From assembly GCA_963924565.1 (NCBI GenBank), contig OZ004607.1, positions 28,210,001-28,274,000 on the forward strand: a stretch of 64,000 nucleotides of DNA. The letters are read 5' to 3'. The notes under the pieces were generated by a model. The model saw only the letters and a program-made list of their open reading frames with translations, searched no databases and was not told the origin of the DNA. The translations under genes were made by a program, and so were the position numbers. This document shows, piece by piece, positions 2,296-44,600 of the stretch. The first letter of the stretch is position 1, and every line of letters begins with the position of its first letter. Origin of the DNA: Ascidiella aspersa (Eukaryota).

Positions 2296-5200
2296 ATGAT
2301 GTCGCAGAATTGGAGTGTAGAGTCGTCCACGGTACCGGTAGCGTCGTTTCCCGAAACCGTGGAAGGCGCTATCTTTTACCAGTCTGTCAGCACGAAGACC
2401 ATTGACCTGATCTTTTTGTCCTTTCTGGCCGTGATCGGGACTTTCGGCAACCTGATGGTTATCGCTTCCATCATTTTTGCAGGACGAATCCTTAAAAGCG
2501 GAAACCTTTTCATAATCAACTTGGCCGTAGCCGACCTAATCGTAAGTTGCCATTTCCATATGGGGCCTTTAAAGAGGCCTTTTTTCAGCTTTTTATGGCC
2601 CTAGTTTTAAACAGTAAATGGATTGCATTCAGAGCCACGTTTGCAGTCTATCTGTAAATTGAGTTGCTTTTCAGTTAACGAAGATGTTTTTCTTAAAAAT
2701 TCCGCTCAGCAAGAAAATTGACTAATATATAAACATATATATATATATAAACAAAACTAAAAGTAACTTTTGGTTGGAGAATATTAAACAGTTAAGTACA
2801 GGGACGTGCAGTCAGGGGAGGTAGATGAGGCACTGCATATATCAAGCAAAAGTTATATCAGTTATATCTCTACCGTAAATTTTACGTTTCCATACCTAAA
2901 GCGTGCTTTATTTTTTCTTCTAGTTCTGTTGTGTTATTCATATCAAGCGTTCACGCGGTAATTATCATAGAAATACGCAAAGTGAGGCAGCGCCAAGCCG
3001 TGCCTCTCTTCGGATCACAGAATTGCCATGCAATGCATTATGCTAGCTTTTTTCTTTCGCTAATTCTCTCGAAAAACATGATGAACAATTTAGCTATGAT
3101 TGGAGGCATGCCTCAATTGTGACGTTCCAGCTATGAAACCTTTTTTCGTCCAGCTTGAATGCCCGCATAGTACGTGTAATTTTTGTAGTGTAAGACTCTA
3201 AAGTTAAAGTCATAAACAAAGGCAGACCTGTTGCAAATTTTAAACTTTTGCATCAGAAGACTGGACAAAAAAATAACACGCAACTTATAAAGAGATTGGT
3301 GAAAAAGAAGTAGATGTGTAGCTGTCATGACGTAGCCAGGGCCCAGGGGGGCCATGGCCACCCGAAAATTTATAAATATTGTACTCTTAATAATAATTTG
3401 TTTTGTGGCATTTATGAGCAGTAACCTACCACCACAACAGTCGATCACAGGCGTGTCACACCTTCAATTGTCATGCACTGTTACGTCATAAACGAAAAAA
3501 CGATGTAGTCATTAATACGTTTGTTATTTTAATGTAGTTTTACTACGTTTTAGTCGTTTTGTTTTGTCTCTGAATGGTTTTTGAGTTTATTTATTGTTTT
3601 ATTATTACGATACCGTTTTTGTGGTTGTTAAAGAAAAACGTGACTCGAAAAAATGTGTGCCTCACCATCTAGGAACCTCACCGCACGTCACTGTTGGTAC
3701 AATGTATAGGTAAACCTTAACAGCACAACATGCACCCACTGCCGACACTTAGCCTCTGTTAAACTTCGTATAAACTTTCCGCAATATAGCACGTTTGCTT
3801 GTAGTTAATTGTAAAAATTACGAAAATATTTCCCTTGATCCTGTCAGGTTTCTGGTATCTATGTGCCAACCATCGTGGCGAACGTGGTGAAGGGTGAAAA
3901 CACGTTGACGCCGCTTCTCTGCAAAGCAACTGGCTACATAATCACGGTGTCGTGCGTATGTTCGGTGGCCAACCTCACCTGCATCGCCGTCAACAGGTCA
4001 GTTAGTAAGACTGGCAGTATAAACGTTCGTCGGTTCTTCGAGATGCCTTGGAATTATCTGTTTTTTCCTACTTGAATATAACAATTGTTCAAACATAATT
4101 TCGTTTAAATGCAATTTATTATTTTGAAACTGTTTAAGACGTATGCCATGTTGTGCATGTAAACGCTATAAAATTATCCGTATTAATACATTTTTAGATG
4201 CGAGCTTCTGGATATTGCTAAATAAGTATATTGAATGTTTTGGTTTGGGCGTAATACGGTATTTGGCATACCCAATCAGATTTTATTCTTCATTTTTTTG
4301 GCGAATTCATTGCCCATTTTAAAACTTTGTGTTGTAAACCACGCCAAGTCAATTCTAGCCAAACGTAATTTCATTTCTAGCCAAGCGTGATTTCCGATAT
4401 AAATAGTCTAAGTTAAATTATCCATATTCAATTTGTTAAAGCCGTTTAAAAATGTAGTGATTTGTACAGGTTTAGTCTTTAAATGTACAAAATAAAAAAA
4501 ATAACAACCGAAATCGATTCAAAAATTATACATCAAAAATAATAAATGAACAAAGGGGTGTTTGGTGTTAACTTTGTAAAACACAGTGGGACTGCTTATT
4601 GTATAACAACACTTATCAGCACTGGTTATTGCTCGGTGGAGATTGGTTTATTGCTCGTTAGGGTTATTGCTCTACGTCGTAATGTGGTTGATTCCCAAGT
4701 GTAAAAATTAAAAGGTGTCCACTGTCCATATACATAACATGAGCAGCTGTCTATGCCAGGTTTCGATTGTAGCTCACTTAGTTTCGGTTTGACCAAACCT
4801 GATATAATAGTATGTGCTTGTGTAAGTTTGTAATGTTTTACCCAGTGTAAAAAACTATAGTAAGAAATATAAATACCATTTTGTGAAAGGCGGATTATTG
4901 GCTAACCGCATGTTCTTGGATTTGTATATTATTGCTTACAACCCCTATGTGAGGCCTTAGCTTATAGACTTTAACGCATGATTGCGCGCACTGACACTGC
5001 TTCTATAATTTAATGCACAGCCACTTAGGAAGTCCCTACAAGGTTTGATACAATACCGCAGTTTATTTTTATGTGACCTTACCAACATACCATTTTTAAG
5101 CCGAACCCAATCGAGTACGAACGCAAAAGTCCCCGGGAAATGCCAACAAGGCAATTTTTGCCATAGCATAGGGTTCTATTCGGTTGAACGACGTCTGCTT

Positions 5201-8200
5201 AAGGCACTGTGGTTTACCAGACAACTGTAATATAAGGGGTCGGCAACTTTTTTCCTAGTCGCGGGATAAAGCCAAACTCATGTTTTGGGCCGTATTGAGT
5301 TTTACTTTGTTGTGAAAACGTATAGCTTCTTACAAATGCCGCTAATCAGAAGCGAACCTAATATTTTTTCGCATTTCAAAATGGGTCTTACATTTCTTTG
5401 CGCGAAAAAAATGTCGTTCGTATGGTTTGAGATTTGAGCCAACAGGGCGCAATTCATGGTCACAATAAACAGCGAAATAATAATATATTTAAATAACAAA
5501 TTTTAATGTTAGTATAGTTCTTGGATCTGCGAAAATATTTCACGGTTTGATTTAAACATGTATAACTAAACCTGTAGAGTTTGTGGGAGCTTACATGCGC
5601 CTTTAGGTCGCGGAATTTTTCACCATTTTCGCATTTCATGCATTCTTTTTTTTTTCGTGAAAACCTGTTTGTGCGTGAAACCCTGGCGATGTTAAAGCGA
5701 CTCGGTTTCTTGGCCGGCCAATAAATGCGAGCTCTTATTTGGTTGGGTAAGCAGGCACCACAGCAAACTCGAAATGTTAATCGATGTAGCAAGTCACAGC
5801 TATTTTTGGTTAAAAAAGGCAAGCAAAGAGCAATGCATTGTACAGAGGTCGACTTTTTCGATCAATCAACCCTGGTCGCATGTTATCTCACTCAATGTCC
5901 GTCTTACACGCACCTGCTACTAAATATTTAATGTCGTCGCTTGAGTGACTGATTTTTACGTGCTGTACACTGTACGTTTTAGGTACTTGGTCATCGCTCA
6001 CCCATGTAGCTACAGGCGAAGGTGCTCCAAGCAGAAGCTTCTCTACGCGATCGCCTCGACTTGGATCTGGTCAAACCTAATATCTTCCCCAACCTTCCTC
6101 GGCTGGAGCGACTTGATGTGAGTCTTGGGGCCGAAACGTGTGATGTATTGGCCACCACAAGTATTCAAATATTGTGTAAATTACATTTCTTTTTGTGCCT
6201 GTAAATACAAAGCTTTCTTCAATTTTTCCTAAAGTTGCAAACAAGGGCAAAAAAACAAAGGCTAACTCAACAAAAAGTACAAAATATTTGTTCTTGCTAA
6301 ATTCATACAAAAGGTTGCAATATATATATAGTAATTAAGGGCATGCAAGTGTTGCACTTTGAGATTTTTTTAACTTTAATAACACATAGTCTAAAGCTGA
6401 AAATGCAAAAAATACAACCACAGTGAGTCAGAGTGCTCGTGTTGGCCTTGTTGTACCTATATTCCAGTTAAACTTACTGAGCAAACTTAAATCATACATC
6501 TCTTTATTCCATAATTTCTAAGACTAAAACCGGAGCTGCTGTGGAGTCGGTTTAAATAACCCGAGTCCGATTCCGGCCAACAAAATAAACCCTATAGTAC
6601 GACTCCCGAGTCCCGAGTCCGACTCCGGCCAAATGTATGGTTTCGTGTTTTTTGAGTCCCGAGTCCGGCTCAGACTCTACTGCAGCCTTTATTCCGCCAA
6701 TTTACGTAACGTAACAAAATACGGTAGATATTGAGCAATCCGACTATGGGGGTGACATATAACTCATTCACTCATAACCATCATATATGGTTGGAAAATA
6801 TCCACCAAATGTCGTTCCGCCTTTACCACTCACAGTTAGCGGTCAAATCAGTTTCGAAATCTGGTACTGCGCATTCGCAAGTCGGACTCCAGCAAAAAAA
6901 TCGGTTTTGTCGAATGCCCAGTCCGATTCTGACTCTGCATCCCTGACTAAAACTATTCTGTTTTTCTTAGCTACGACGAGAAGATGGTGGGATGCTCGTG
7001 GGATGACACGGCCTCAGTGAGCTACAATATACTTTTCATGACGCTGGCTGTTTTTATACCCGTTATCGTCATTTGCATTTGCTATTGGAAACTGTACAAG
7101 TGAGAATTTACGCTTGTTCAAGAGATTGCCCGGCGAAAAATTTGCCATTTTACTAAAATATTTTACAAACTAAGTTTCATGTTAAATTATTTTCTATTTA
7201 ACAGTCGTTTCTTTAAAGTTTTCAGTCAACATCTTTAAATATAAGCCATAGTGCGACGGGTTCGTTACTGCGAGTATAGTTTCAGTTGTATATATCTGTA
7301 AATTCGCTTCTATGGTATAAAATACAATTTTCTCCTCGACTATTAATTAGTTTCTACAGCTGACAGTTCTTTTGTGGCTCGCAGGTGCGTCAAAAGCCAA
7401 GTGGTCTGGGTTCGCCACATGGGGCTTACCCCCGATAAAATGAAGCGGCGCCAAAAGGAGGAGCTAAGTTTGTTGCGGACCCTGGCCACTGCCATTATCA
7501 TCTTCTTGGCCTGCTGGACGCCCTATGCCTTCTGTACCACGTTTTTCCCGAAAGAAGTGCCGTTGGAAATTAAGAAGGTTCGCATAGCTGTTTTGTAACT
7601 GCTATATACGGTCACGTTATTCGTTTTATCCAAAACTGCTTATTCGAATAGTGGTGTACAAGTGTTTATTAGTAGTGCGTACTTAACCTTTTTAATTCCG
7701 CATTTTTAACGATTGAGGGAGATATAAATATTGAACTAAGAGCTGTTTACCAGTCTAGCCTAAATCAATGGGATATTTGTGAGATAATACCTTCTGCTAT
7801 AAGATTATTACTAAACAACTGGTATTGCTTAAAGGGCTATACTTTTTTCTCAGGTTTTTTGTTGGTGTGGTATTACTAACTCTGTAATGAACTTCATCAT
7901 TTACGGAGCAATGAACAAGACCTACTACAAAGGATACAAGGATCTACTTTTGTTTATCTGTTGCAGAAAACGACAAACAGTCAGGTGCGGGGTCCTAGGT
8001 TAAGTTTTGTCAATATACAACAAATTGTGCTGTAGCTGCTATAATAAGCGATTATTATAGTTTGACCACTATACCTAATATGGCCATAATCAATAGAGAA
8101 AGTGGTAATGAAACATATAGTAATTCTAAAAAAGTTAGAAGAAAAATTCTAAAAAATTAGAGCAATTTTGAATTGCTCGAGTGATTTTGTCAGTTAACGG

Positions 8201-16444: not shown

Positions 16445-19400
16445 ATGACCAGCGAAAACGGTTCGGAACATGGGCTGTGCTACAATCTGAGCCAGCCCTT
16501 CTGTGGGGTATACGACGCCGGACGAGTGCTGGACGCTATTTTCCTCACGTTGCTCACTGTGTTTGGTACCATCGGCAACCTCATGGTGATTTTCTCTATC
16601 ATCCTTTCGCGTCGAGTGCACAAAAACGGCAACGTGTTTATCATCAATCTGGCGGTGGCCGATCTGATAGTAAGTGTTCGTTGTGTATGCGTTACTACTG
16701 CAAAGTTTATTGGTGAACGTCCGCTTTATGAATTTGACGAACAACGTTAGAATAAATCCTTTTAAATCGTTGTGACAACGCGCTATAACAAGTGGACAGG
16801 AAAATGACACTTTAACTTATACAGATAAATGCTGAGAAACGCCTGTTTTTTACCCACGTCAGTAAACTTCGAGTTGTTGTCTCAACCTGACCGCAACCAC
16901 CTGTTGTATCTTGTGACAAAACACAAGTTCGCAGTTAGTTTTCGAGGTTTACATTTATCGTTGACGAATATTTTTTTTTATTGCTTCACGAATACATTTA
17001 CATTTATTTGTAGCGTTAATACATTTACATTTAATAATCCGATTCGCGATTAAGGTAAAACAACATTTCACTAACTGCAACTGTTCTTAATAACTAAACC
17101 GTGTATCAATTTTAAAGAGCCGTGTATACCACATATGTGTACGTCTGTTGATTAGCCCCCTGTTGTCGTAAGGACTAACAAGTACGGCACTTTTATTAAT
17201 AGTACGGCAAAAACCGTACGGAAACCCATCTAAATCAGTCGGCTTATGTAAGTAACTTTACATACTAAATCAACATTACCAAACACCCCAAATTAGATAC
17301 GCAGCGTACCACCCCATTAAATATTCTTTGGTTCCTTTTTACAAATTCATGATAAACTTCAACCGCTTTTCCAGTTTACAGTTTTGACATTCACCGTGAA
17401 AGATCACACGATTTGACGAGCGCCGCTTCCATTGCGTGATAAGGATATCCTTGAATTGTCAATTGGCGCTGCATTGAAGTGTGTGCGAACTTGTGTATCG
17501 CATAGCTAAATCCTCCATAACAAGTCGGATGGCACGCCCGAAGGCATTGATCAGACAAACAAAAACAAAATTTTGATTACTGAGAAATTTCGAAAGCGTC
17601 GGAATTTTTTAATAATATAGGCAAAGGCTTGGGTGTGAATTTCCCATCGCCTGTCGATGGAATTACGCAAGTCTATATACGGTTCATTGTTTATCTAAAA
17701 TTAAACCTCAGATAAGGTGGGCTTCACTTGTCTGCGTGTCTGACGCACAGGGCTTTTTTATCGAGAGTATAATATCACGCCAAAAATATGTGAATAAACT
17801 TGTTTTGGAACTTTCCGCCGAAACACTAGCACGTAAAAATATAGCTAAGATCAATTTCCATATAAAGTTTGCTGCTTTCAGGTTTCCTGATAAAATTCCA
17901 ACCAAGGCGACATGCTTAACCTACATGTCGCTATAGGCTAGAACATGGCATTATTGGGTTGTTTCTAGAGATAATAATTAGCATTGTAGGGCTGTTGTTC
18001 TGTGTTTTTCTGTGTTTTGCTTTGTGGTTTTAGCACCGCGCCCAAAGCACAACAGCTCCTAAAGCTCTGCGAAGTCGAAATTAAGTGAACTTTGGGGCAA
18101 TGCTAAAAGTAGCGACGTGGAACCGTAGGTTGGATGCGTTCTTAAACCAACGTGTAGCAACCGGAACGGCATTTCGATGCGCACCTTGCCCTCGACCTTT
18201 GTTGATTTCTGCGTAACTCTTTGTTGCGTTGATGAAATAATAATAATATATTTTTTTGTTAATATCGGGATCTAAGCCTGCTCACACATTTCTAGTTGTT
18301 GATCGTTTCTCCATATCGTAAGATCAAAGCAAAACCACAAAGATTGTAAAAAACATCCAGAACAACTTTATTCAACAAAAGCGGAATACTATAGTTATGT
18401 AGTTACGCAAAAAGCATCTTCAGTTCTGCTAAGATTCTTATTCAAATAGAATTCTTTCTGTGGTTTTGTTTGGATCGTTGTTGCGTTGTTGCTTCAACAC
18501 GAAGATCCAGAGTTGGCGAAATTCGAAAACGACCGATCAATAGGTCGCGAATAGAACCTGGCGAACTTATTGCCTCGGGAGTAATTGGCTTTTGTAATTT
18601 AACGCTTCCCTACACAGGTCACCGGTTTCTTCACGCCGACTGTAATTGCCAACGTGGTGCTGACGACCAACGCACTTCCAATCGGCGTATGCCAAGCGGC
18701 GGGTTACCTGGTCACCGTTTCTTGCGTGTGCTCTGCCAGCAACTTGGCCTGCATCGCTTTTAACAGGTTTGCTCCCTCTGATAAAATTTGTCGCTTACAG
18801 CTTGGCTGCTCCCTTAACTGCACAATCAATATAAGACTTCCGTGGTTTAAAACTAGACAATTTGCCAACATGCGCACTGTGCATAATTGGTTGAGTTTCA
18901 TTATACGCTAAACGCTCGTGTTTGGTTTTGGCTTATGTACAAACTATTTGGTGGCCAACGTTTCGCTTCACCAACCAGTTGTTTAAATACATTTCGTTCA
19001 AATATATACATTTCCGTAAATTGTAATACATTTCCGTAATTGTAATAACAATAATATTAAAAGCAATCGTTCTAATTTTAGAATGTAAAGTTACGTAACG
19101 CCATTCGACTAAATCTAGTCAAAAAAAAATCCGTTTAGTCTTTTGTCTGTATAAAGTTAAAAATATCACACGTTGGACACAAATACAGAAACGTCCAAGT
19201 AGCTTGAACATCAGCCAAGTATGTCACGAACCGTTTCTTACAGATATTGGGCTGTGGCGCGGCATACCTCTTACAAAAGTGTATTCACCAAGAAGCGCAT
19301 CTACATAGCAGCGGTCATCAACTGGATCTGGGCGAACCTCCTAATTATGCCAACCTTCCTGGGCTGGACGAAACTAGAGTAAGTGCGCGTAACATTATAC

Positions 19401-22400
19401 AGAACAGTTCGCTTTGCTTGCAATTGTTTTATAAGTTGAATATGAATCAGCGGTTCTAGTTTATTTTCATGAGTGACTGCGGATGTTTAGTGGCCTTCAG
19501 TGACCGACCGTAATACCAATTATATATATTTAAGACCTAATTTTTAAGGGTTTCGAACGTGTTCACCAAATCACATGTCGCCTCAAAATACAGCTTATAT
19601 AGATTAATGTTTTGTCGCTGTGACGCCGAGTGTAGCTGTAGCTGTATTTATACTGGCCTGTGGAAAACAAATGAGCTCCTCTTGGACGCCATATTAATTG
19701 AACAAAAGCATTATTACTCGAGGGTACCCAAATTAAAAATAATATTTGTATATATCTTGGAACCAATCTTATCTATAAGATGTGTATAAAGATATGTCAT
19801 GACTGCGTTACGGGTTGGTATCTATTATAATCAATTATTCTTACATTAAAATTTAATTTAGGCCAACGAAATATGCTTCAACAAGCGTCTTTACATCTAT
19901 AGTATTTTTGTTTAAAGACAGCAAATTAGGAGATTTGATTTAAACGATTTGTTTCCAGTTAGGTTGTTTGTTAAGCCATAAAAGTTTTAAAATAGAAAGG
20001 AAAATGCTAAAAAACAGAAGAGAGTACTTTTCCACTAGAGTTGGTTTCTAAAGGAATTAGAAAGCAAAAATGATTTCCTTTAACACTTTAGTAAATAATA
20101 AAGCTGAGCTTTTAGCAAGAAAATATTTTGACAGGTCCGAAATTTTATTCAAAATGATATATAGATTAATGTTCCATGTTTTGGAGGTTTTGACACATCA
20201 AGCCTATATGATTCCTTTTTCAGCCCATTACCGAATCATCCAGCGTTGTACGTTGTTCGACATCTCGATTGCTATGCTTATAGTTGTCATTTTGCCCACG
20301 CTAGTAATGAAACTAATCACCGTTGATATGTACATTCTGAACCATTCAAACTACGTGGTAACCTCAATGAACCCCGGTAGGTTTTCGAAAAAAAGGTCCG
20401 GACCTACAAAACCAGAGTAAAGTTGAATTGTTAAATAAACAAGGTTAAGGATTAAAAAAAACGAAATGTTTCTAAAGAATATCAGTTATCTTCAGGTGAT
20501 TAAAATGATGGTGGCACTAATGTTCTAGCAAAGAGTAGCGATTAATGAAAATCCTGACCAACACAGAGTAAGTAGTTCAGCAGGATGTTACAGCCTTAAC
20601 CACAATCAAGTGTGCTTGATAAATTGCAGATCGCGCGTGCATCTGCGGAAGTCGCGAGACCCTATACCAATGGCCAGCAAGAAAGTTTTTTTTGCACGCA
20701 GGTACGGCCCTGAAATGCTGCTGTGCTCCTACAACAACGTGATAGCGCCCAGCTACAACGTCTTTGTGATGGTGCTTGCCATCTCCCTACCCATCGGCCT
20801 CACAGTCTTCTGCTACTGGCGTCTTTTCGCGTGAGTCAACAAGCATCCGCCCGCTGTACATTCTGCTTTTGCAGTGACCCCGATTAAACTTGTATAGCAG
20901 CGAACCGCAGACCGCTGTCTATTTGGTAGGCACGGCTCGGTGCGGAAGATCGTCATTGGCCTTTGTTTGCGCCCCGCAGCTCGGCATTCTGCGAAATCAA
21001 ATCAACCGGGTCGCACTTGTTTGCGCGTTAAAGGCCATGACTATATGGTGACTTCTTTATGTGTGTGGGCACGGGTTTGCGGTTGGTTTCGGTCAGGATA
21101 TCCACACCGCATAGGAAAATACCTAGTAATGTATCCTTTACCTTAAGTGCTCCTAAAAGGATCCCTCTCATTAGTGTTGTTCAATCTCAAAATACCTTTT
21201 AAGCTGGGTAATTTTCACACATCTCGTATCGAGTTTAACGCTAAGTATATGCATGATCGGATCAACCAACATATCTTATTTACCATGTTGCAACGTTGTG
21301 GGATATACAGACATGACCTTCTCAAACTTAAGATAGATATATTGAGATTAAAAAAAAATTCAAATTTACAAAAAGAATCCATTTTAAAGTACATAAACTC
21401 TTGCCCGTTGAGTCCATTGGGTCCAAGTATTCCCTTGACATTTCGTCAGCTGATATCACATGACAACTCAGTCAAGATAGAGTTATTTCTTTACTGGCTC
21501 CACAAGTGTCTTCTGAGAGCACTTATAGACATAACGGCAATGACTTATTAAAGTTTAATATGCAAATTTACGAGCTTGCGCAGTGTGTTTCTGTATGTAT
21601 ACTTTTTTAATTCCGACACTTCCTTGTCGTCATTTCGTAGTTTATTTAATTTTTATTTTTTGTCTTAATGCCGATTTGCGAAGAGGTCTTACATACCACC
21701 ACAGCAGTTTGTATCCTTAAATTAACCATTTTGGCCAATTGTGCGCCTTAAATTAACAACACCAGTTTACCTGATGTGCAGTAAATGGTAATCTTAACCT
21801 CCACTGCAACATTCTGTACCCTAATTTAAAATCTAAGCGTCTAACTGTAGGGCTGTAAAGAAGCGGGGTGCCAAGATGCGGCGGGTGAGCTCCCTGCCAG
21901 CGACCGGCCAACGCAACTTGGAGCATAGACAGCTACAGAAGCAAATCAACTTAGCCAAAACGCTGGCGATGGCCGTGTTGGCCTTTGTCGTCTGCTGGAC
22001 TCCCTACGGCATCCTTATCATACTCAGTCAAAATATCGTGCCCCCGATTGTCAAAAGGGTAAGTGATAATGGTATACAATGTGCAAGTCTATACGCCCAA
22101 GAAATCCGAGATAAAATAGCTCACTTGTAGTGCTGTAAATTGATCCCTCACTTTGCCCTAATTTTCTTGTGTTTCGCTTGACGTATTGCTAGGATTTACC
22201 CTGGTTTTAGTGTCGCCCGGGTTAAATGCATCAAACATGTTTATACCTGGAAAAATACATCACCGCACGTTTGCGCTTCGTGCGACGGCTGTTTCCGCTG
22301 ATTATAAGATACACTAACAGAGACCGATTGTTTTTTTTTTGAAGTATAACAAAATAACCAGGACCGCTTGCAAAATGACAAAGCATTAAGTATACCCCCG

Positions 22401-23926
22401 GGATTTCTGATCCCCAATTTTCCTGAAAGGACTCATTCTTTCGTTGAAAGTTATTCGACTTCACCTTTGTCTCCTGTTAAAAAATTACATGAAAATGTAA
22501 TTCTTTTAAAAAGATAAGCTAGTAAAAGAAGTAGAACATCTGGCATTTTTTACTGTCCCCAGCGGACAATTATTTTTTTCGGTAAAGAGGACGAAACCCT
22601 AGGAAAAATGCTAGCACAAGGTGTAATTATCTGAACAGCTTTGTTTGCAATTTATTTTTTTACACAGACGTTTTGTTGCCTAGTACAGCGACGTAGACAT
22701 AGCTCTTGGTGCAATTGATAAAACCTTTGAAAATGACAACCCAGAATTGAACTGATTTAACCAATTTTAAAATCCCCTTTAAAAGAATTCAATGCCGTTT
22801 AGGAGCTTTAAAGTCCATCTTCAGGCAGAATAAAACTAGTGCAGTAAAAAATTCAAATGGCTAATAGTAAAAATTGCACTTTTATTAATTTTATAGAATT
22901 ATACAAGTTGGATTATTTAGATTTTAAATTTGACACCACTTTTATCATCGCGGGCCTTAACATACGAAATGCCATTATTTTCTTCAAACGGATCTATTTT
23001 TTTAAAAGGCCAAGCCTAATACGATTTTGTCAACGTTGTTTATTCTAGGTTGCCTCGCGTTTGATTCTTACCAACTCGGTGATCAATTTCGTCATCTACG
23101 GTGTGATGAACCCGACCTACAGAAAGGGTTACAAGCTGTTGATCAGCTACGTTTGCTGCTGTGTGACGAATGTTCCGTAAGTTTAGTGGAAATACAATAG
23201 GGCTTTAACAACCTAATTCTTGTGACACAGTTTATATGTCAATGGATATTTTGATACGATGTTAACCGGAGGTAAATCGTTTTACCCAGGTTATAAAAAA
23301 TACCAAAGCTACTTTATTATATGTAGTTTATAATAATACTGTTAATAAGTTTGTACAAAAACAAAATAACACGGTTTCTTTAGACAGAAACCAATACCAA
23401 AACAATATTTTCTTATTTTAATTAAGCCTTTTTTTAGCTTTTTTCTTAATTTAAATTGTTTTCTATCACCAGCGGTGTCAAATCAGAGATAGATTCTCAT
23501 TCAACCAATGGCACTCACGCGAAGAGGTTTCAAAGTATGTTTTCAAGATCGAACCTACAGGTAAACGGACTTCCATTGTTTGATTAACACGAGAAGGAAA
23601 TAGTCTATATACTTTAGTCTAGTGACTATAGTCCATTTATGTATCAATAAATCGTTACTAACAACCATAACACAGAAAGTGCATTTTATGGGTAAAAAAT
23701 AGTATGGCTAAAAGGAATTTTATGTCCTGGGTTTTGCAAAACAGTTTTTAGATTTGCGCTTTTACTTATTTATGTGAAATTGCTTTTTATTTAACGTAAT
23801 GTCCCCTTTCAGAAACCTTCACCTGCGTTGTCAGTCAGTTCAAACACACGACGGACTGTATTGCAAGTCACTCCTCAACTTACACCCGACGGTTCTAGAA
23901 CCAACTTGACTAAATCAGTCGACTAG
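16445..23926 (+). CDS. Class A GPCR, melatonin-receptor-like orphan (family A, gene A2), 8 coding exons, ~391 aa
   Basis: Exons 16445-16669, 18618-18766, 19244-19378, 20702-20830, 21851-22058, 23049-23176, 23473-23560, 23813-23926. Exons 2-4 are 149/135/129 nt, the same as A1; spliced length 1176 nt, open. Motifs GTIGN, NLAVADL, CIAFNRY, FVVCWTPY, NSVINFVIY, CCC after helix 8, Ser/Thr-rich tail. Confidence 0.92.
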
Positions 23927-33768: not shown

Positions 33769-35047
33769 AGCTAGCAGAAGCAGTAACGAGCTTATTACAA
33801 CAGAAAACTGATGCAAATTTCTTGTCAGAGGGCGCGAGTTACCTTGCTCGTCCTAGGTTTTTGCATGCCTCAAAGCCCTGGAATCAAATAAGGTCGAGTC
33901 GAGGGTAGGCCGAACCGTGGTGCTTTCAATTGCGCGGCAACCACAACGGAAAACCCTTCTACAATGGAAGTCCGTCAGCATGCGGTGATGGTCGCTTGAC
34001 GAGGTGCTTGTAAGGTGACGCGTTGGTGCCCCAAGCCAGGCGGCTCTTGCTATTTAGCTGTTAAAACGTTACACCATCTAGTCAGGAAATTGAATTTCGA
34101 CACCCAAGTCCCCGATTTGTAGGGCTGCCCTGCGTTATTGGCAACTTGCTTGCTGAAATCCGAGGACTTTTCAGTAACGACTGCTATTGGGAAAGATTAA
34201 GGGAGGGATTTTTAAATACAGAGGCTTGGTTCATATCCAAAATGATTAGAAAGTTTAGCGATTAACCCAGACTTTTGAGTGTATTTTGTCAATAATTTCA
34301 CGATTAGAGTGAAATACAGTTTTGACTTAGAATTGATAACGTATAAAAGTTTCCTTATCAGCTTTATTTATTTATATTTATAAGGATAGGTTAGATTCGC
34401 TTTTGAGTTTTCTTATCAGGGTTTTTATAAAACAGTAGCTTTAACCCTTTATAACTGAACTTCAACGACATTTCTTGAATACACTTATGTGGGAAATTTC
34501 AAAGCACGGGAAAAATGTGATAAGAGAGGACAGCGCTAATTGAGATAATGACTCAACTTTTCATTGTCCAAAAAAATGACACGAACTGTGTCGTTTCCAA
34601 TATTTAAACGTGTATGACACAATCGCTTAAAAAAACAACAGCAATCGCTATATTAAGGTGACCGCAGGTGCGTACCCGGCATTCAAAGTTCGTGTTTATT
34701 AAACAGGTCACTCGTTTATTATTGGTTTCGATCCGCGCTGCCTTAATCGTTTATTACCGGGTCGCAAAAGCTGACCTGTCGAGCATCGCCGATCTACCAG
34801 AAAAGGCGCTAGTAATCGATGGAGGCCGCAAATAAAAACTTGCAGAATATTACTTTTATGCAAATAAGTTTTTTGCACGCAAATTTCGGGCTGCCATTCT
34901 TTTGTGCAGATGGTATGAATCAATAGCTCAATTTTTGGAAGAAATTCGTCGCAGTAACCAGGGTGTTGACCATCTAAACGTTTTATTGTTTTACAGGTAA
35001 ACTCAAAAAGGTTAAAAATATTGACAATAACGTAACAAATTTCAAAC

Positions 35048-38000
35048 ATGGACAGTCGGTCAGTAGAGCTGGAGTTACTTACCACGGCCAATCTACTTAC
35101 GACAACGGACCACGAAGTTCACGTGGATGATCATGATCATGATCACGATCATGGCCATCACCATCACGAAGGTTTCATACAGGAAAGGACTCCGGTCGAA
35201 ATTGCCTTCGAAGTCATTTTCCTCCTTTTATTGGCCGTCGTTGGCACTCTGGGCAACCTTATGCTCATACTGTCGGTCACACTGCAGAAGCGAGCGCACA
35301 AAAACGGAAATATATTTCTCATTAACCTTGCAGCGGCCGACCTCGTGGTAAGCATACAGTACTCGCTTTGTGACAGAATGTTCGTTAACGGAAGTTTATG
35401 TTTCCTTTTTACTGCGACATCGCGTTTACCGCCCGTTTTAATTTCAAAATTTTCACCGACTTCTTAAATAACAATTATCGCCTTGTATTCTTCATTTGAT
35501 TTCTCTCACAGATATGCAATATTTGTGTGAGTTAACGGAAATTTGTGATTACCATTTTATAGCAACATCGCGTTCACCGCCCCACTTTAATTTGCGGTAA
35601 ATCATCAGAAAATCGAAAAATGTCTTTTAAAATAGCATTTAAATACCCACCATTGTAATTTTCATTTGATTGTAACTTAAGCGATTCTTTTTGAATTGTC
35701 AAAAAAGTCCAAATTTTGTCAAAATTTACACGTTAGGTCGAAATTTGTCAAACTTTTTTCAAGTCAAAATCGATTAAAAATGTTAATACACGTTTACAAA
35801 ACTGACAAAACTATACTCATCTTTTCAACTTGTCGTTCAGTAAAAACTTAATCAAAATAAATCTTGTTTTCAGGCCAAAAAATAATCGCCCTAATTTTCA
35901 CAGATATGCAGTATTTGTGTGCCGGCTGTAGTGGCCAATGTTCTAATGGGCACCAACGCTCTTCCTGCCATTGGCTGTAAGATACTGGGCTACATGACGA
36001 TTGTTTGCTGGGCCAATTCGCTCTCCAACATCGCATTCATCGCCGCCAACAGGTAATTGCTCATAATTACGAACTGATTAACCTATTTTATTCAAAAGTG
36101 GTAAGTTTAGGTCAAAATACAACAACAACTTTTGCAAACAGTAACGTTCGATCGGCGCTCATAAATTTACGATGCAACAATTCCTCCAAAAATTCCATAT
36201 CTTATGTTTTATATAAATATGTATTGTAAATATAAATCAACATAGCTGTTTAGACCAGTGCTTTCCAACCTTGTTCAGTTCGCGACCCACTTTTAATGCA
36301 AGTTATGTTGTGCGAACCACAATGAGATATGACCAAATTGTTTAGCAATAATTTAAAATGCAACTGATTGAAAATAAGATTAACAGTTACATAAAACCTG
36401 CATATTTACTACTGGTGTACGTACTGAAATAGTTCATGCGACAAAACACATCTAATTGTTACGTATTTGTTACATTGTTGCATGAACCTTACGTACCGGG
36501 TAATGATAATGTAATAATTTCCCGAACTAATGGAAAACTGTAACATTTATAAATGCTTCGCGACCCACCTGAAAGCTACTGCGCATTGATTACCTACATC
36601 TTGATTATAATCAGGTACTGGGCTGTTGTTCGATACGAGTCACATCCAAAGGTATTTTCGAATCGCAATATGATCTTCATGGTGGTGGTCACGTGGATAT
36701 GGGCTAACCTTCTCGTACTGCCGGTGTTTACAGGATTTAGCGAACTAGAGTAAGTTTAGTTTATCGATTTTCATGTAACGTTCATGTAAAATATTGTAAA
36801 ACTGTGTAATAAAGCCCCTTGTGTTATGTTTATCATTATTTCAAAAAGAATGTACAATTGTAGCCTATTAAACGTATTACACATTTTTATTACACATTTT
36901 TTTTTTTTTTAATTTGAATATGAATTTATTCCTTAAACAGGTTTCTTATTATTATAATTTAATATACTAATGCTATTAACATTTGTAACCTAAATCATAT
37001 CTAAATAATGCGCTGTCGTTTAGGTATGACGCCAAGATGCAGATTTGCTTGTGGCACGACAGCAAGAACCCAGCCTTTAACACCTGTATGATGGTGGCCA
37101 TTTTTCTTCCGGTTGTGCTGATCATCGTCTTCTACTGGAGACTTATGCAGTAAGCAACATTTTCTATCGTCTTTAACAAATAGTTGTTTTCTTATAAGTC
37201 CTCAAAGCTGTTAAGGGTTAAATTACACCATTCTGATACAAAGTCAGGTAATTGAGCACATGCCGTAAACCAGCGTGGTCCACCTACAGGCTCCTGGGCC
37301 AAATGTGGCCTGCGAACTCTTTTTATTGGTATGTCTATCGAATAACTTTAGTTGTATAACTGCACAACAGTCCGTCAGTTTTTTTTCTTAAGGTTACTTT
37401 AAATTACGACGTAGCGTTAATACGCAACTTCTGAAGCATGTATAAGACGTTTTTGTTCCTCTTACTAAAATTTAAAAAAATCTGTTTCCGCCCGCGACGA
37501 AATATAGTTGGACCACGCTTCATTCATAGTCAATCTTAACTCTAATTTAGTTTTCAATTTGGAGCTAATATGTCAACTACTTTTATTGTCGTGTACCACT
37601 TTATAATTTTGTTTCAGTACCTCGGGATATAGACGAACCTTTACTTGACCAAAAAACACACAAATAAATAAACAAATACCTCGCGAACAGCTCTAATTAT
37701 TCTACATTAGAGGTAAAGTTGATATTCCTAAAAGACAACAACGCGTCATTTTTAACTCTACACAAGAGCGGAGGCTGCCCGTATACCACCTGGAAAGCCT
37801 CGCGTGCTTCTTCTATAGTAGTACTTGCACGAGTAGTTGCCGAACACTGCTGTACACAGTTGCCCTTTTTTTCAGCTCGGTTCGAAAGCGAGGCAAGTGG
37901 GTAAGGAGGATCAGCAGCTGCCCGAAAAACGGAAACACGAGCGGAGGAGAATCGGGAGGAGGAGGAGGAGGAGGTAAAGTAAGAGGGTCGGTGCGCAAGG

Positions 38001-39568
38001 AAATCGATCTTATGAAGACTCTGGGTGCCACGGTGACGGTGTTCGTCCTACTGTGGTTGCCCTACGCACTCATGCTCGCCATCGACCCGAATGATGTGCC
38101 GGCTGTTGCCGAGCAGGTTTGTATTGTTATGATTAAGGGAAAGCCCTAGTTGTCACTTTGTTTATCTTTCGCATTACCACTTTTTATAGGGCCAAGTTTT
38201 ACCTTAAAACCCACGTTCGTGCCAAAGCTGGCCGATGAAAAACTTTCAACTGATTTATTAGCAGTTTATTTTTTAAAGATGGTTGAATTGGCAGTAAAAA
38301 GAATTTAGCGCAACAATAGCAATATCCCTAAAAACGCCACACATTAATTTGTTTTTGTTTTTTTCACTTTGCCATTATAGTCACATACTTATATGATCTC
38401 TTGGCCAACCAGTAAAACACTAATATACTAAGCAAATGCTTACTCAAGTCAATGAAAAAAAAACCTTGTAATTTTAACTTACTACGTAAATATAACTTAT
38501 TAATTAATTGCAGGATAACTAAGTTACTTATTGTTTTGTTCTTCAGGTGGTCGCCTGGTTGGCTCTGAGCAGCTCAGCGATGAACTTCATAGTGTACGGC
38601 GTGGTGAACCCGGTTTACAGACGAGGCTACAAGAGGTTATTTCGACGAGCATGCCGATGCCACAAATTAATTCCCGGGTAAGAAAAGCACAAATAACCAA
38701 TTGTACTGCTAAAGCGTCGCTCACCAATGTATGCATAAAAAATTAGCGTTTGTTTAAAAAGTTTGCCTTATATCCATAACTTGCCAAATCTTCAAACGCA
38801 AATGATATAAGTTTTATAATAAAGTTTATTTTTGTAGAAGTGATCCCGACAGCAGCTCCACCATGACCATGAAACCAAGAAAGGCGACTGTCAGTTCTGT
38901 AAGTGTGTGTCGCGTTACTCTATATGTCGTAAAGTTTTTTTCAGAAAAATAGTTGTTGTAGCATCTTTAGTGTTGAAATCAGCTGCATCTTTATTCAAAG
39001 CAAAGTCATTTAACAGTAGGTTAAGTTCCTATAGTATGGAGTATTCTGTGGTGCGCAACACCCAGAGACATTTTGCGCAGTGACGTTTTATCGCACTTGC
39101 CAAACCATATTTAAAGCTCGGCAATAAACCTGGACAAGTCTGTACAATTGGATGAGCGAAAACCATAGATTATTTATATATATACTTTGTTGTAAATCAT
39201 TAAACTAACCCTACTAAATTTTTAATTAATTCGGGGTAGCTCTGCCATAAAATATTCATGCTTATTCTTATAAACATTGAAAAAAATCCTCGAAGGTACT
39301 CTGGTAGTACGATTACACTTTGCCATAAATTTTCACCTCGTAGCGATTACAGCAGAAAACCAAACAAGAATCGTCAACAGTGATTTTGTAAAACAAACTA
39401 GAAAGCATTTGTTTTTATGTGTTTTTTTAAATATTTTTCCAGCTCCATGGAGCCAACTGCAGACGAATTACCACGCCGCAAAGGAACTACGGCTTTAGGA
39501 GCGAAGTATCAAGGTCTGATGCTAACGACCTTACCACAGACAGCGCCAGAAGCAAGACGCTGATCTAA
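35048..39568 (+). CDS. Class A GPCR, melatonin-receptor-like orphan with His-rich N-terminus (family A, gene A3), 8 coding exons, ~422 aa
   Basis: Exons 35048-35347, 35904-36052, 36615-36749, 37024-37149, 37876-38116, 38547-38677, 38838-38898, 39443-39568. Same intron positions and phases as A1/A2; spliced length 1269 nt, open. Motifs GTLGN, NLAAADL, FIAANRY, FVLLWLPY, SSAMNFIVY; poly-Gly in ICL3; ends ...SKTLI. Confidence 0.92.
37271..37520. mobile_element. hAT/Charlie-like MITE in A3 intron 4
   Basis: TIRs cagcgtggtcca / tggaccacgct with subterminal gggccaaatgtggcctgcg and gcccgcg motifs. Confidence 0.6.
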
Positions 39569-41616: not shown

Positions 41617-44600
41617 ATGAAGTACTTGAGTTTGCTGTTCAGCTTTGTTGCCGCGTTTTCGATTCCGATATCTTCGCAAAGAACAGCAACGCAAAGGCCT
41701 TCTGTACCAGGATCGGCAACCAAAAAGGTTTTGTCCGCGATCAAGCAGCAGGCCCCGCCCATTTTCGTACGACCCCATCAGCCGCCAGAACACCCAACGG
41801 AGAACCCCACAACGCCTCCGGCAAAAAAAAGCTTCCCTGAGTTCGACCCGGATCAATTGCCAACAGAGGACCCCATATTGGGTGTTTTATCTACAAGGTG
41901 GCACCCCAATCAACCAACCCCAACCGCGCCTTCTCCTAGTGAACCCCAATCAGGGATTCTCACAATCGGAGTCGAAACCCATCACCCATCGTCCCCACTC
42001 CCTAGCGTTGACCCAAATCCGGCAATACATCCGATAGCTTCCGAGGCGATTAGCACAAAGTTGAAATCGTCCACTGCGCTTACTACGCCCTTTAAAGTCA
42101 CGACAGCATCATCTACATATGTTTATACCCATTTAAACGCCAACTCTACCAACCTGGAACCGATTTTTAACGGCTTCCCAACGTTTTGCTCGTACGATGC
42201 CATAATCCTGTGCGCGGGTGTGCCGTTGATGCATTGCAAACGCTGCAGCATGCAAACCGCCGGCTTTTTCGCCTTCGCGATTGTCGTGCTCGCCTTTGCC
42301 ATCATTTTCGCCAACGCCCTGGTGATCTGGGTCTTCGTCAAAGGAAAGTCACTCTTCGTCAGCAGCTACGTGAAGATCAAGACATCGCTGGCCGTCGCCG
42401 ATCTATTCACAGGTGATTCTTACCGCCTGTGGCGAAACCATTTCATGCAAAATCTGGGGTCTCGGAACTTTATGGAATTAATCTAATAAGTCGTTTCAAA
42501 AAACCATATTATTATCATAAATCAATACGTCGCTTTTATAGATAAACATCACGACTGAAATGTTTTAGCAACTGCTGTTAAATCTGATACAAAACGTTTT
42601 TAAAACGTGTTCATTAAAAATGTATTTATTACTTTATAATATTACATATAGTAAAGGTACTTAAAATGTTATTAGAATGTTATTCTAAACGACCCAGCAA
42701 TAACAATTTTGTGTTTTTAAAGCCACTGTAAAATAAGGCTTTGGAAGTTTAAATATCAATCGTTTTATAACAAATTTATTTTTAGAAATACATAATTCAT
42801 CATTTCTGTAAGTAAATATTACATATGAAATATGTATATGGAAACGCTTTTAAATCGTGTATGGAAACGCTTTTTAAAAATGTGTATGGAAAACGCTTTT
42901 TAAAGTTTTACAAAACGATTTCATCATTAAACAACTACCCTATATAGATACGCTTCAACCTTGAATTTAGGCTCACCAATTTCAAATACTGGCAAGCCTT
43001 TATGACAGACAATGAAAAATTGATATGCCATACAAAAGTGGCAAAATTTGAGGATAGCTTTTTTGTGTTCTTTTTCAATACTTTATAGAGCTCAGAAACT
43101 TGAGGGGTTTTGTATGCCATCTTAACGAGAGACTATTTGGATAACTAGGCTGGATAACTGTAAGGATTGTCGATCGCGGTTAAGACACTTGTAAATATCG
43201 ACGATCGAGGGTCGGACATAAAATTTGTATTGATCTTATTTGACTGGGTTATTATAAATCGAAGTAAGCTAAAAAATAACTCAAAATATATAGTGAGTTT
43301 AAAATTGCATTAAAATTGAGGTTATTGCTTTGCATTCGACAAACATTCCTGTTTATAAACACATATTAATAACTTTGTTTTTCGAAACATGCTGCGGGCC
43401 TGATAATCAAACTGGCAGGCCAGATTTGGCGCGCGGGTCGTAGTTTGGTGATCCTTTGTATATAGCAGGGCTACTGAACTGTTTTTAGCAAAAGTCTAGT
43501 TACAAAAGTTTAGCATTTGCTTAGGTCCGTTATAACTCTCATGAAATAATTTATAGTCATACAAAATGTAATACGTATACATATGTCCTTCACTTCAACT
43601 GAGAATTCTGTGCTGTCCGTTACTAGAAAGTGGTTTTCAATAAACAGCAACAATTTTTTGCCAAGATAAAAACGATTAAATCGCAATGCTAAGTAAATAC
43701 TGAGACAGATAAGTTCCGTATTCTGACCGCGGCCCCCCAGTTAAGTAGCACTGGTATGTAGGCACTCTAAGCATATTTAAATCAATTCTGACAGGTGTTT
43801 TCTTACTGGTGGTGACCCTTCCGAACTTCGGCCTGACCGTGACCATGACGCCCGAAGAACTATTCCTCCACACGATGGCGCAACACGGGAGCGCCTGGGC
43901 CAGCGTCGGTGGAGTCCTGTACCTCCTCCTCTTTAGCTCTTCTCTTTACCATCTTGCCTTCCTGGCACAGCAGCGATTTTACGCTATCGTGTATCCGACA
44001 AAGTACAAACTGATTAAGGAGAGGTCGATATACATCGGGATCGCTGTGGTCTGGCTACTGTCGGTTTTCGCTGCCGTTTCTCCATGTAAGCAACATATAT
44101 GGTTCTTAAAAAATGAATAATGCTAATATAATTTGGAACGCAGATTTTCTAGGCAGAATTGTGTAGGCTTAAACATTTTTTCTACATTAGTGCTTAGTTT
44201 CAATCATTTGAATTTGAAGCCAAGTGCCAGATCGACAGATATGTTTATACGGATTCCCAGGGAGCAGCGAAAGAACTTTAGGTCATCAAAGTCAGCCGCT
44301 CTCTGATCGCAATATCATCAGAATACATGTGCAGGTCAAGAGTATAGAATAAATAATTCGAAAACAAATTAAAATACAATAAAACAACAGGATTTCTGTT
44401 GTTTCGGCCGTAATGTGGTAAAATCAGTTCAGTCGCGATGTTGTAATAATTTGTTTTCACTGACTCTATTAGAAGTGCTTATCTAGGTGGATCATTATTC
44501 GATGCGCGGCTTTTTGAGTTGATTGGCATCTAAGCTGTAAAAGATCCATTTTTTTAGAAATGCAAGGAGATTAATTAACTATTTCAATATCACTTCAAAA

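Follow-up and report, generated by a model that had tools for sequence, protein, structure and literature searches.

Non-vertebrate melatonin receptor (MTNR)-like genes are reported in Ciona, where six of them form the sister clade of the vertebrate MTNR genes; melatonin was not tried on their products, as far as the accessible text of that study goes, and as of 2020 it gives no tested ligand for receptors of this type (PMC7541902). For the vertebrate receptors, the available portion of PMC8786939 describes the roles of N162 (4.60) and H195 (5.46) in the melatonin pocket and the NAxxY motif of MT1 and MT2. Two other systems bear on extracellular His residues. According to the parts of the literature available, GPR39, a Zn2+-responsive orphan receptor of the ghrelin family, has a zinc site made of His17, His19 and Asp313 which is also pH-sensitive (PMC8070507) and may be allosteric (PMC13494238), and the His loop in the ectodomain of the transporter ZIP4 binds Zn at low uM, while ZIP4 zinc sensing is unchanged by mutation of its His-rich sequences (accessible text of PMC7949119).

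The window considered here is a stretch of 64,000 nucleotides from the ascidian Ascidiella aspersa, and it carries three paralogous receptor genes on the forward strand: A1 (2296-7984) and A2 (16445-23176), each with six exons up to helix 8, and A3, which has eight coding exons with canonical GT-AG borders and encodes a product of 422 amino acids. Exon 1 of A3 (35048-35347) codes for a Thr-rich segment, a His-rich tract, TM1, ICL1 and the start of TM2, and holds no N-glycosylation sequon. Exon 2 (35904-36052) runs from TM2 to TM3 and includes C3.25, T3.32, W3.36 (codon 36009-36011) and the NR of an NRY motif; exon 3 (36615-36749) supplies ICL2 and TM4 with V4.60; exon 4 (37024-37149) supplies ECL2, with the stretch C-L-W-H206-D207 (His codon 37055-37057), and TM5 with A5.46 and P5.50. 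ICL3, TM6 (W6.48, P6.50) and ECL3 are encoded by exon 5 (37876-38116), and TM7 (NFxxY, L7.43) and helix 8 by exon 6 (38547-38677). Exon 7 (38838-38898) is a predicted part of the C-tail that agrees with the tail of the ortholog described below, and exon 8 (39443-39568), read from the sequence, completes the C-tail through the TAA at 39566-39568. Upstream, a splice acceptor (AG 34995-34996) is followed by a 51-nt 5' leader (the two together spanning 34995-35047), and an in-frame TAA between this acceptor and the ATG at 35048 means that the start cannot shift upstream, so that the N-terminus is fixed.

Window positions 35108-35170 on the forward strand translate to DHEVHVDDHDHDHDHGHHHHE, 21 residues of which 10 are His, 6 Asp and 2 Glu. 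These are residues 21-41 of A3, in frame with the ATG and with TM1-TM2, all within exon 1, and the His/acidic tract is thus real and coding. Hydropathy places the onset of TM1 at about residue 49-52, 8-11 residues beyond the tract, which bears out the preliminary description of 10 His in 21 residues shortly before TM1. That description had also noted mixed CAT and CAC codons together with a gatcat repeat; the count is five CAC and five CAT, and a GATCAT-type run occupies the middle of the tract. Since the N-terminus has no hydrophobic leader, the tract would be extracellular under class A topology. With the His frequency of related N-termini (1.9%), the binomial probability of at least 10 His in 21 residues is about 1e-12 per window, a figure that leaves out repeat slippage, by which tracts of this kind become far likelier.

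A search with the exon-1 protein against 1.84 billion representatives gave 102 matches, the best of which, P0001 (E 1e-18, spanning the tract), is Phallusia mammillata CAB3254766.1, annotated as "5-hydroxytryptamine receptor-like". Its tract has 9 His in 21 amino acids together with 9 acidic residues and follows a Thr-rich segment, at the same position as in A3. The preliminary description had proposed checking orthologs for conservation of the tract, and in P. mammillata both composition and position are kept. Trees grouped A3 with P0001 at a support of 100/100, and at 100 SH-aLRT in repeat trees, the last of which omits four distant rows (P0092, P0093, P0095 and P0102); core identity is 187/283 (66%). 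A second pair, the paralog L004 and Phallusia P0080, clusters likewise (90 SH-aLRT), as expected for one-to-one orthologs. The AlphaFold2 model of the ortholog, built from a 20-row alignment, has seven confident helices (pTM 0.70), the first beginning at residue 42, six after the last His; pLDDT is 33-37 over residues 1-30 and below 50 for residues 1-34, and the tail is accordingly predicted to be disordered, in a model that says nothing about metal contacts. The ECL2 pair H206-D207 is common to A3 and P0001, and Styela P0085 has the ECL2 His without the tract.

A3 is a class A (rhodopsin-like) GPCR. The anchors N1.50, D2.50, R3.50, W4.50, P5.50, P6.50 and Y7.53 and the cysteine pair between C3.25 and ECL2 are all present; Pfam 7tm_1 matches the ortholog with E 1.8e-42, and three A3 exons give matches below the cut-off. 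Within class A, a profile of 20 relatives searched against the PDB found MT1 first (7vgy, E 4e-68), then MT2 and GPR50 (to 2e-65), the next family following at 6e-58. Named relatives from Ciona, Clavelina and Styela are annotated as melatonin receptor-like, as are the top feature and structure matches in the ESM Atlas. With P0001 alone, phmmer separated 5-HT1A, squid rhodopsin and MT1 by no more than 3 bits, and the MTNR-like assignment therefore rests on the family profile. Judged by these comparisons, A3 belongs to the non-vertebrate MTNR-like clade, bearing NRY and lying closest to MT1/MT2/GPR50 and the tunicate MTNR-like proteins. Compared with the six Ciona genes, the A. aspersa genome yields six exon-1 matches. 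A3 and its MTNR-like relatives alike have NRY in TM3 and Y-D-x-K/R-x-x-x-C in ECL2, whereas A3 differs from the described systems in having V4.60 and A5.46 for N4.60 and H5.46, NFxxY for NAxxY, W3.36, no N-terminal sequon, and the His tract.

Several other identities were considered and rejected. V4.60, A5.46 and NFxxY rule out a receptor of the vertebrate MT1/MT2 type. Aminergic receptors are recognised by Asp3.32 and opsins by Lys7.43, which forms the Schiff base with retinal. A3 and P0001 both have Thr at 3.32, against the 5-HT annotation of the ortholog, and A3 has Leu at 7.43, although squid rhodopsin is the top Foldseek match. A zinc receptor of GPR39 type by homology is likewise rejected, as the nearest relatives are MTNR-like and GPR39 is absent among the top matches listed. 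For GPR4, GPR65 and GPR68 the observation is that they do not appear among the top matches of P0001 and of the family profile. The parallels that the preliminary description drew are not ones of kinship for GPR39, and probably not for GPR4/65/68. Among 21 aligned rows, W3.36 and N3.38 occur only in A3 and its ortholog, position 3.36 being mostly Cys elsewhere; a Trp at this place could make the pocket narrower or form a toggle together with W6.48.

The tract is rare in the family and in the genome. Six exon-1 matches were found in the A. aspersa genome (308.6 Mb, 75 contigs), three of them inside the window (A3, A1 and A2) and three at other places on contig C1, and none of the five paralogs carries it, which confirms its reported absence from A1 and A2 and extends it to three further genes. 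N-termini could be parsed from 95 of 112 related proteins, a set which, the query having held the tract, is if anything enriched for His-rich matches: the count per 21 residues is 2 His or fewer in 91, 4 in one and 9 in P0001. The only other His-rich case is the near-identical pair P0096/P0110, a distantly related melatonin-like receptor fragment whose first 21 residues hold 8 His (5 after the TM1 cut) and which has two more His after TM2; this suggests that His-rich N-termini evolved repeatedly in the melatonin-like branch. A first metagenome scan confirmed none of 597 stretches. A second gave 78 loci, and among the tunicate-like metagenome loci L040-L057 the 10 distinct N-termini all lack a tract (0/10), none exceeding 1 His in 21 residues. 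L040 and L043, nearest to A3 by path, were rejected as orthologs: both are without the tract and W3.36, both have sequons, and a sister position is unsupported. Weak word-based searches, from which absence is not implied, confirmed 0 of 761 candidates for exon 1 compared with longer proteins, 3 of 3384 for P0001 and 2 of 579 for a two-sequence profile (neither with the tract), and no third ortholog was found by them. In the accessible Ciona supplement (PMC2396169) there are three family members, two without N-termini, and none is assignable as the A3 ortholog. The tract is thus found in two species only. Within the coverage of open papers we found no report of it or of a natural poly-His GPCR N-terminus, and the accessible part of PMC13746493 holds nothing on a His-rich GPCR N-terminus or on this receptor. 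What is new here, as the sequences compared indicate, is a His/acidic tract common to A3 and its Phallusia ortholog and specific to one ortholog group. Two further searches were set aside: the (His-x)6 pattern is uninformative in this genome, its 5700 matches being swamped by CA microsatellites, and the ZrgA and CbtA Pfam matches on the tract are compositional and below cut-off.

Nine or ten His in a flexible run, matched by an equal number of carboxylates, typically chelate Zn, Cu and Ni. On that chemistry the tract very probably binds metal ions of the Zn/Cu type; that metal then affects A3 signalling stands near an even chance. The reading we tentatively favour, and would put somewhat short of even, is that A3 is an orphan MTNR-like GPCR whose His/acidic tail chelates Zn2+/Cu2+-type ions and thereby tunes signalling. 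At seawater pH the His would be neutral and the tail a polyanion of about -9; a metal would draw it into a more compact form, and the bound ion could bridge the tail to H206 and D207 of ECL2 across the pocket, in the manner of the three-residue GPR39 site. In acid the His would become protonated and let go of the metal, in which case pH would act through the same site. GPR39 and A3 are alike in being class A receptors with N-terminal His near TM1 and an acidic or His partner in an extracellular loop, but they lie on unrelated branches, and the GPR39 site has two His and one Asp where A3 and its ortholog have 9-10 His in a tail predicted to be disordered; the zinc function demonstrated for GPR39 is for A3 a proposal. 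The ectodomain loops of the LIV-1 ZIP proteins (ZIP4/6/10) share with A3 a (DH)n low-complexity extracellular segment, but A3 is a GPCR with no transporter domain, and the likeness is compositional, with shared descent unsupported. The ZIP4 precedent also means that metal binding by a His-rich loop need not mean sensing.

Selection could instead have retained the tract for a job other than signalling, as a polyanionic or hydrophilic tail that serves as a substitute for N-glycans, in the orientation of TM1 or trafficking, in metal- or pH-dependent internalisation, or in the capture of a cationic ligand, and this we regard as rather unlikely. The acidic N-termini of chemokine receptors capture cationic ligands, and the A3 N-terminus has 12 acidic against 2 basic residues. 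It also lacks the sequon that 87 of the 95 related N-termini carry, as a glycan substitute would predict; P0001, however, has a sequon (NIT) and the tract together, and nine or ten His would be superfluous for a role in charge only. The accessible text of PMC7949119 adds a cytosolic His cluster of ZIP4, which acts in degradation.

Quite unlikely, in our judgement, is that the tail senses protons directly, titration of its ten His moving the charge from roughly -9 (pH 8.1) to roughly -1 (pH 6) and switching the receptor upon acid release. Computed with independent pKa values, the charge swing is present in both orthologs (-9.3 at pH 8.1 and -1.3 at pH 6.0 for A3; -7.3 and -0.1 for P0001), and the blood cells of Ascidiidae are, in the portion of the literature available, described as highly acidic. 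Extracellular His that titrate near neutral pH also contribute in GPR4, GPR65 and GPR68, and divalent metals modulate GPR68 (accessible parts of PMC13494238 and PMC8993716). These receptors, however, probably lie on a different branch and, according to the same sources, use 3-5 dispersed His on structured surfaces rather than a tandem tract, together with a buried triad of acidic residues that is proposed to do most of the sensing; a disordered tail alone would couple poorly.

The tract might also be low-complexity sequence that is tolerated, having originated by slippage in the ancestor of the two species and then persisted or been regenerated without function, which the balance of the evidence makes distinctly improbable. 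The GATCAT run in A3 is a slippage signature, and the gene contains a second repeat, a GGA-repeat in ICL3 (37943-37975, forward strand) that codes for GGESGGGGGGG. Against this, the codons of the tract are mixed, the order of residues differs between A3 and P0001, and the P0001 tract is non-periodic and not a clean repeat, so that the two have composition in common and the tract is not a fresh microsatellite; the ICL3 repeat, which served as an internal control, is confined to A3 and has no counterpart in the ortholog, the ICL3 of the pair being unalignable (1/17). Of the 62 occurrences in the genome of GAYCAY x4, which encodes (Asp-His)x4, one is at A3 and the other 61 lie at C8:3.958-4.024 Mb; confined to A3 and this cluster, the repeat is not a microsatellite that is scattered freely here. 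Exons neighbouring the C8 sites show similarity to the ZIP zinc transporter family (E 6e-7 and 9e-3), with scores that miss the curated cut-off since the exons were scanned singly.

How far the shared His content exceeds drift is harder to judge, as the N-termini of this receptor group appear fairly similar between the two species in general (17/33 identities in the control ortholog pair L004/P0080 against 16/40 in A3/P0001). Under the most lenient setting of a simple decay model (d=0.78, 14 ancestral His) drift keeps the His with P=0.38, and under the other eight settings with P from 0.09 to 1e-8; on this modelling, selection on the His content of the tract is likely. The preliminary description had named high length polymorphism as evidence against a function. 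No length variant was seen in 5 runs from 4 studies, a sample of low power since coverage is shallow and contigs drop rare variants, and one or more of the runs may be the window's own source. The tract is identical in the X2 contig (34700-35727), which has two non-coding substitutions and no gap; contigs of X3 (34997-35297) and X5 (34930-35172) match it exactly, as does that of X4 (35013-35163), which covers all of the tract except the last 7 bases. X4 is labelled as another organism but is near-identical and is not counted as a second species. In X6, 28 raw reads give a depth of 3-6 at the tract with no indel listed, and the A3 introns show indels in X2 and X6.

The suggested link to a metal-accumulating ascidian holds in so far as P. 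mammillata is a classic vanadium accumulator, but a vanadium sensor is barely credible, given that, in the accessible text of PMC11043195 and PMC9486056 respectively, V(V) in seawater is an oxyanion, which the acidic tail would presumably repel, and Vanabin2 uses Lys/Arg amines rather than His/Asp to bind V(IV), while the acidic-tailed VanabinX does not bind V.

Chelation of Zn/Cu-type ions by the tail, with its possible effect on signalling, offers a cheap and sharp hypothesis for deorphanising the receptor: the His tail is tag-like, and five tail-less paralogs and a second ortholog provide built-in controls. Were metals to gate A3, metal sensing by a GPCR would have arisen convergently, on a design different from that of GPR39. 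A stronger version, which we hold to be unlikely, is that A3 and its Phallusia ortholog form a dedicated transition-metal receptor derived from the MTNR-like branch independently of GPR39, with a pocket narrowed by W3.36 and the poly-His/Asp tail as sensor; such a receptor would have arisen in ascidians, an animal lineage known for extreme metal handling. If metals do not gate A3, the tract would still be an ortholog-specific feature overlooked by the "5-HT receptor-like" annotation.

Low-level transcription of A3 is suggested by RNA run X7, 6% of which was read. Four reads lie near exon 1, oriented as sense transcripts would be in the usual stranded libraries, and extend no further than about 35127, within the opening codons of the tract; exons 2-8 have no reads in this 6%. 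Two of the reads start at the acceptor and then run into different sequence, a pattern expected of splicing. At the acceptor the RNA depth rises from 1 to 3, and contig X3 begins at 34997.

Some features of the surrounding sequence are recorded here in their own right. In intron 1 of A3, positions 35512-35532 (forward strand) are a near-copy of the start of exon 2 (AG, 15 nt, GTGAGT), possibly an in-frame micro-exon of five codons or a decoy acceptor. Introns 1 and 2 also contain high-copy interspersed repeats (35570-35900 and 36250-36580), where X6 depth is about 100-fold that of unique sequence. The region C8:3953000-4026000 (L037-L039) consists of repeated ZIP-type (LIV-1-like) zinc transporter exons, and its largest array (L037:4905-5942, reverse strand) is a 346-aa open frame made almost entirely of (DH)n-EVTTE/V repeats and is unusually large for a His/Asp array. 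Within the window, a second tandem group of rhodopsin-like genes occupies 41617-62300, with SLAVAD motifs at about 42385, 54654 and 62231 on the forward strand and 52241 on the reverse strand; one of these genes has a long Pro/Thr-rich N-terminal frame (41617-42486).
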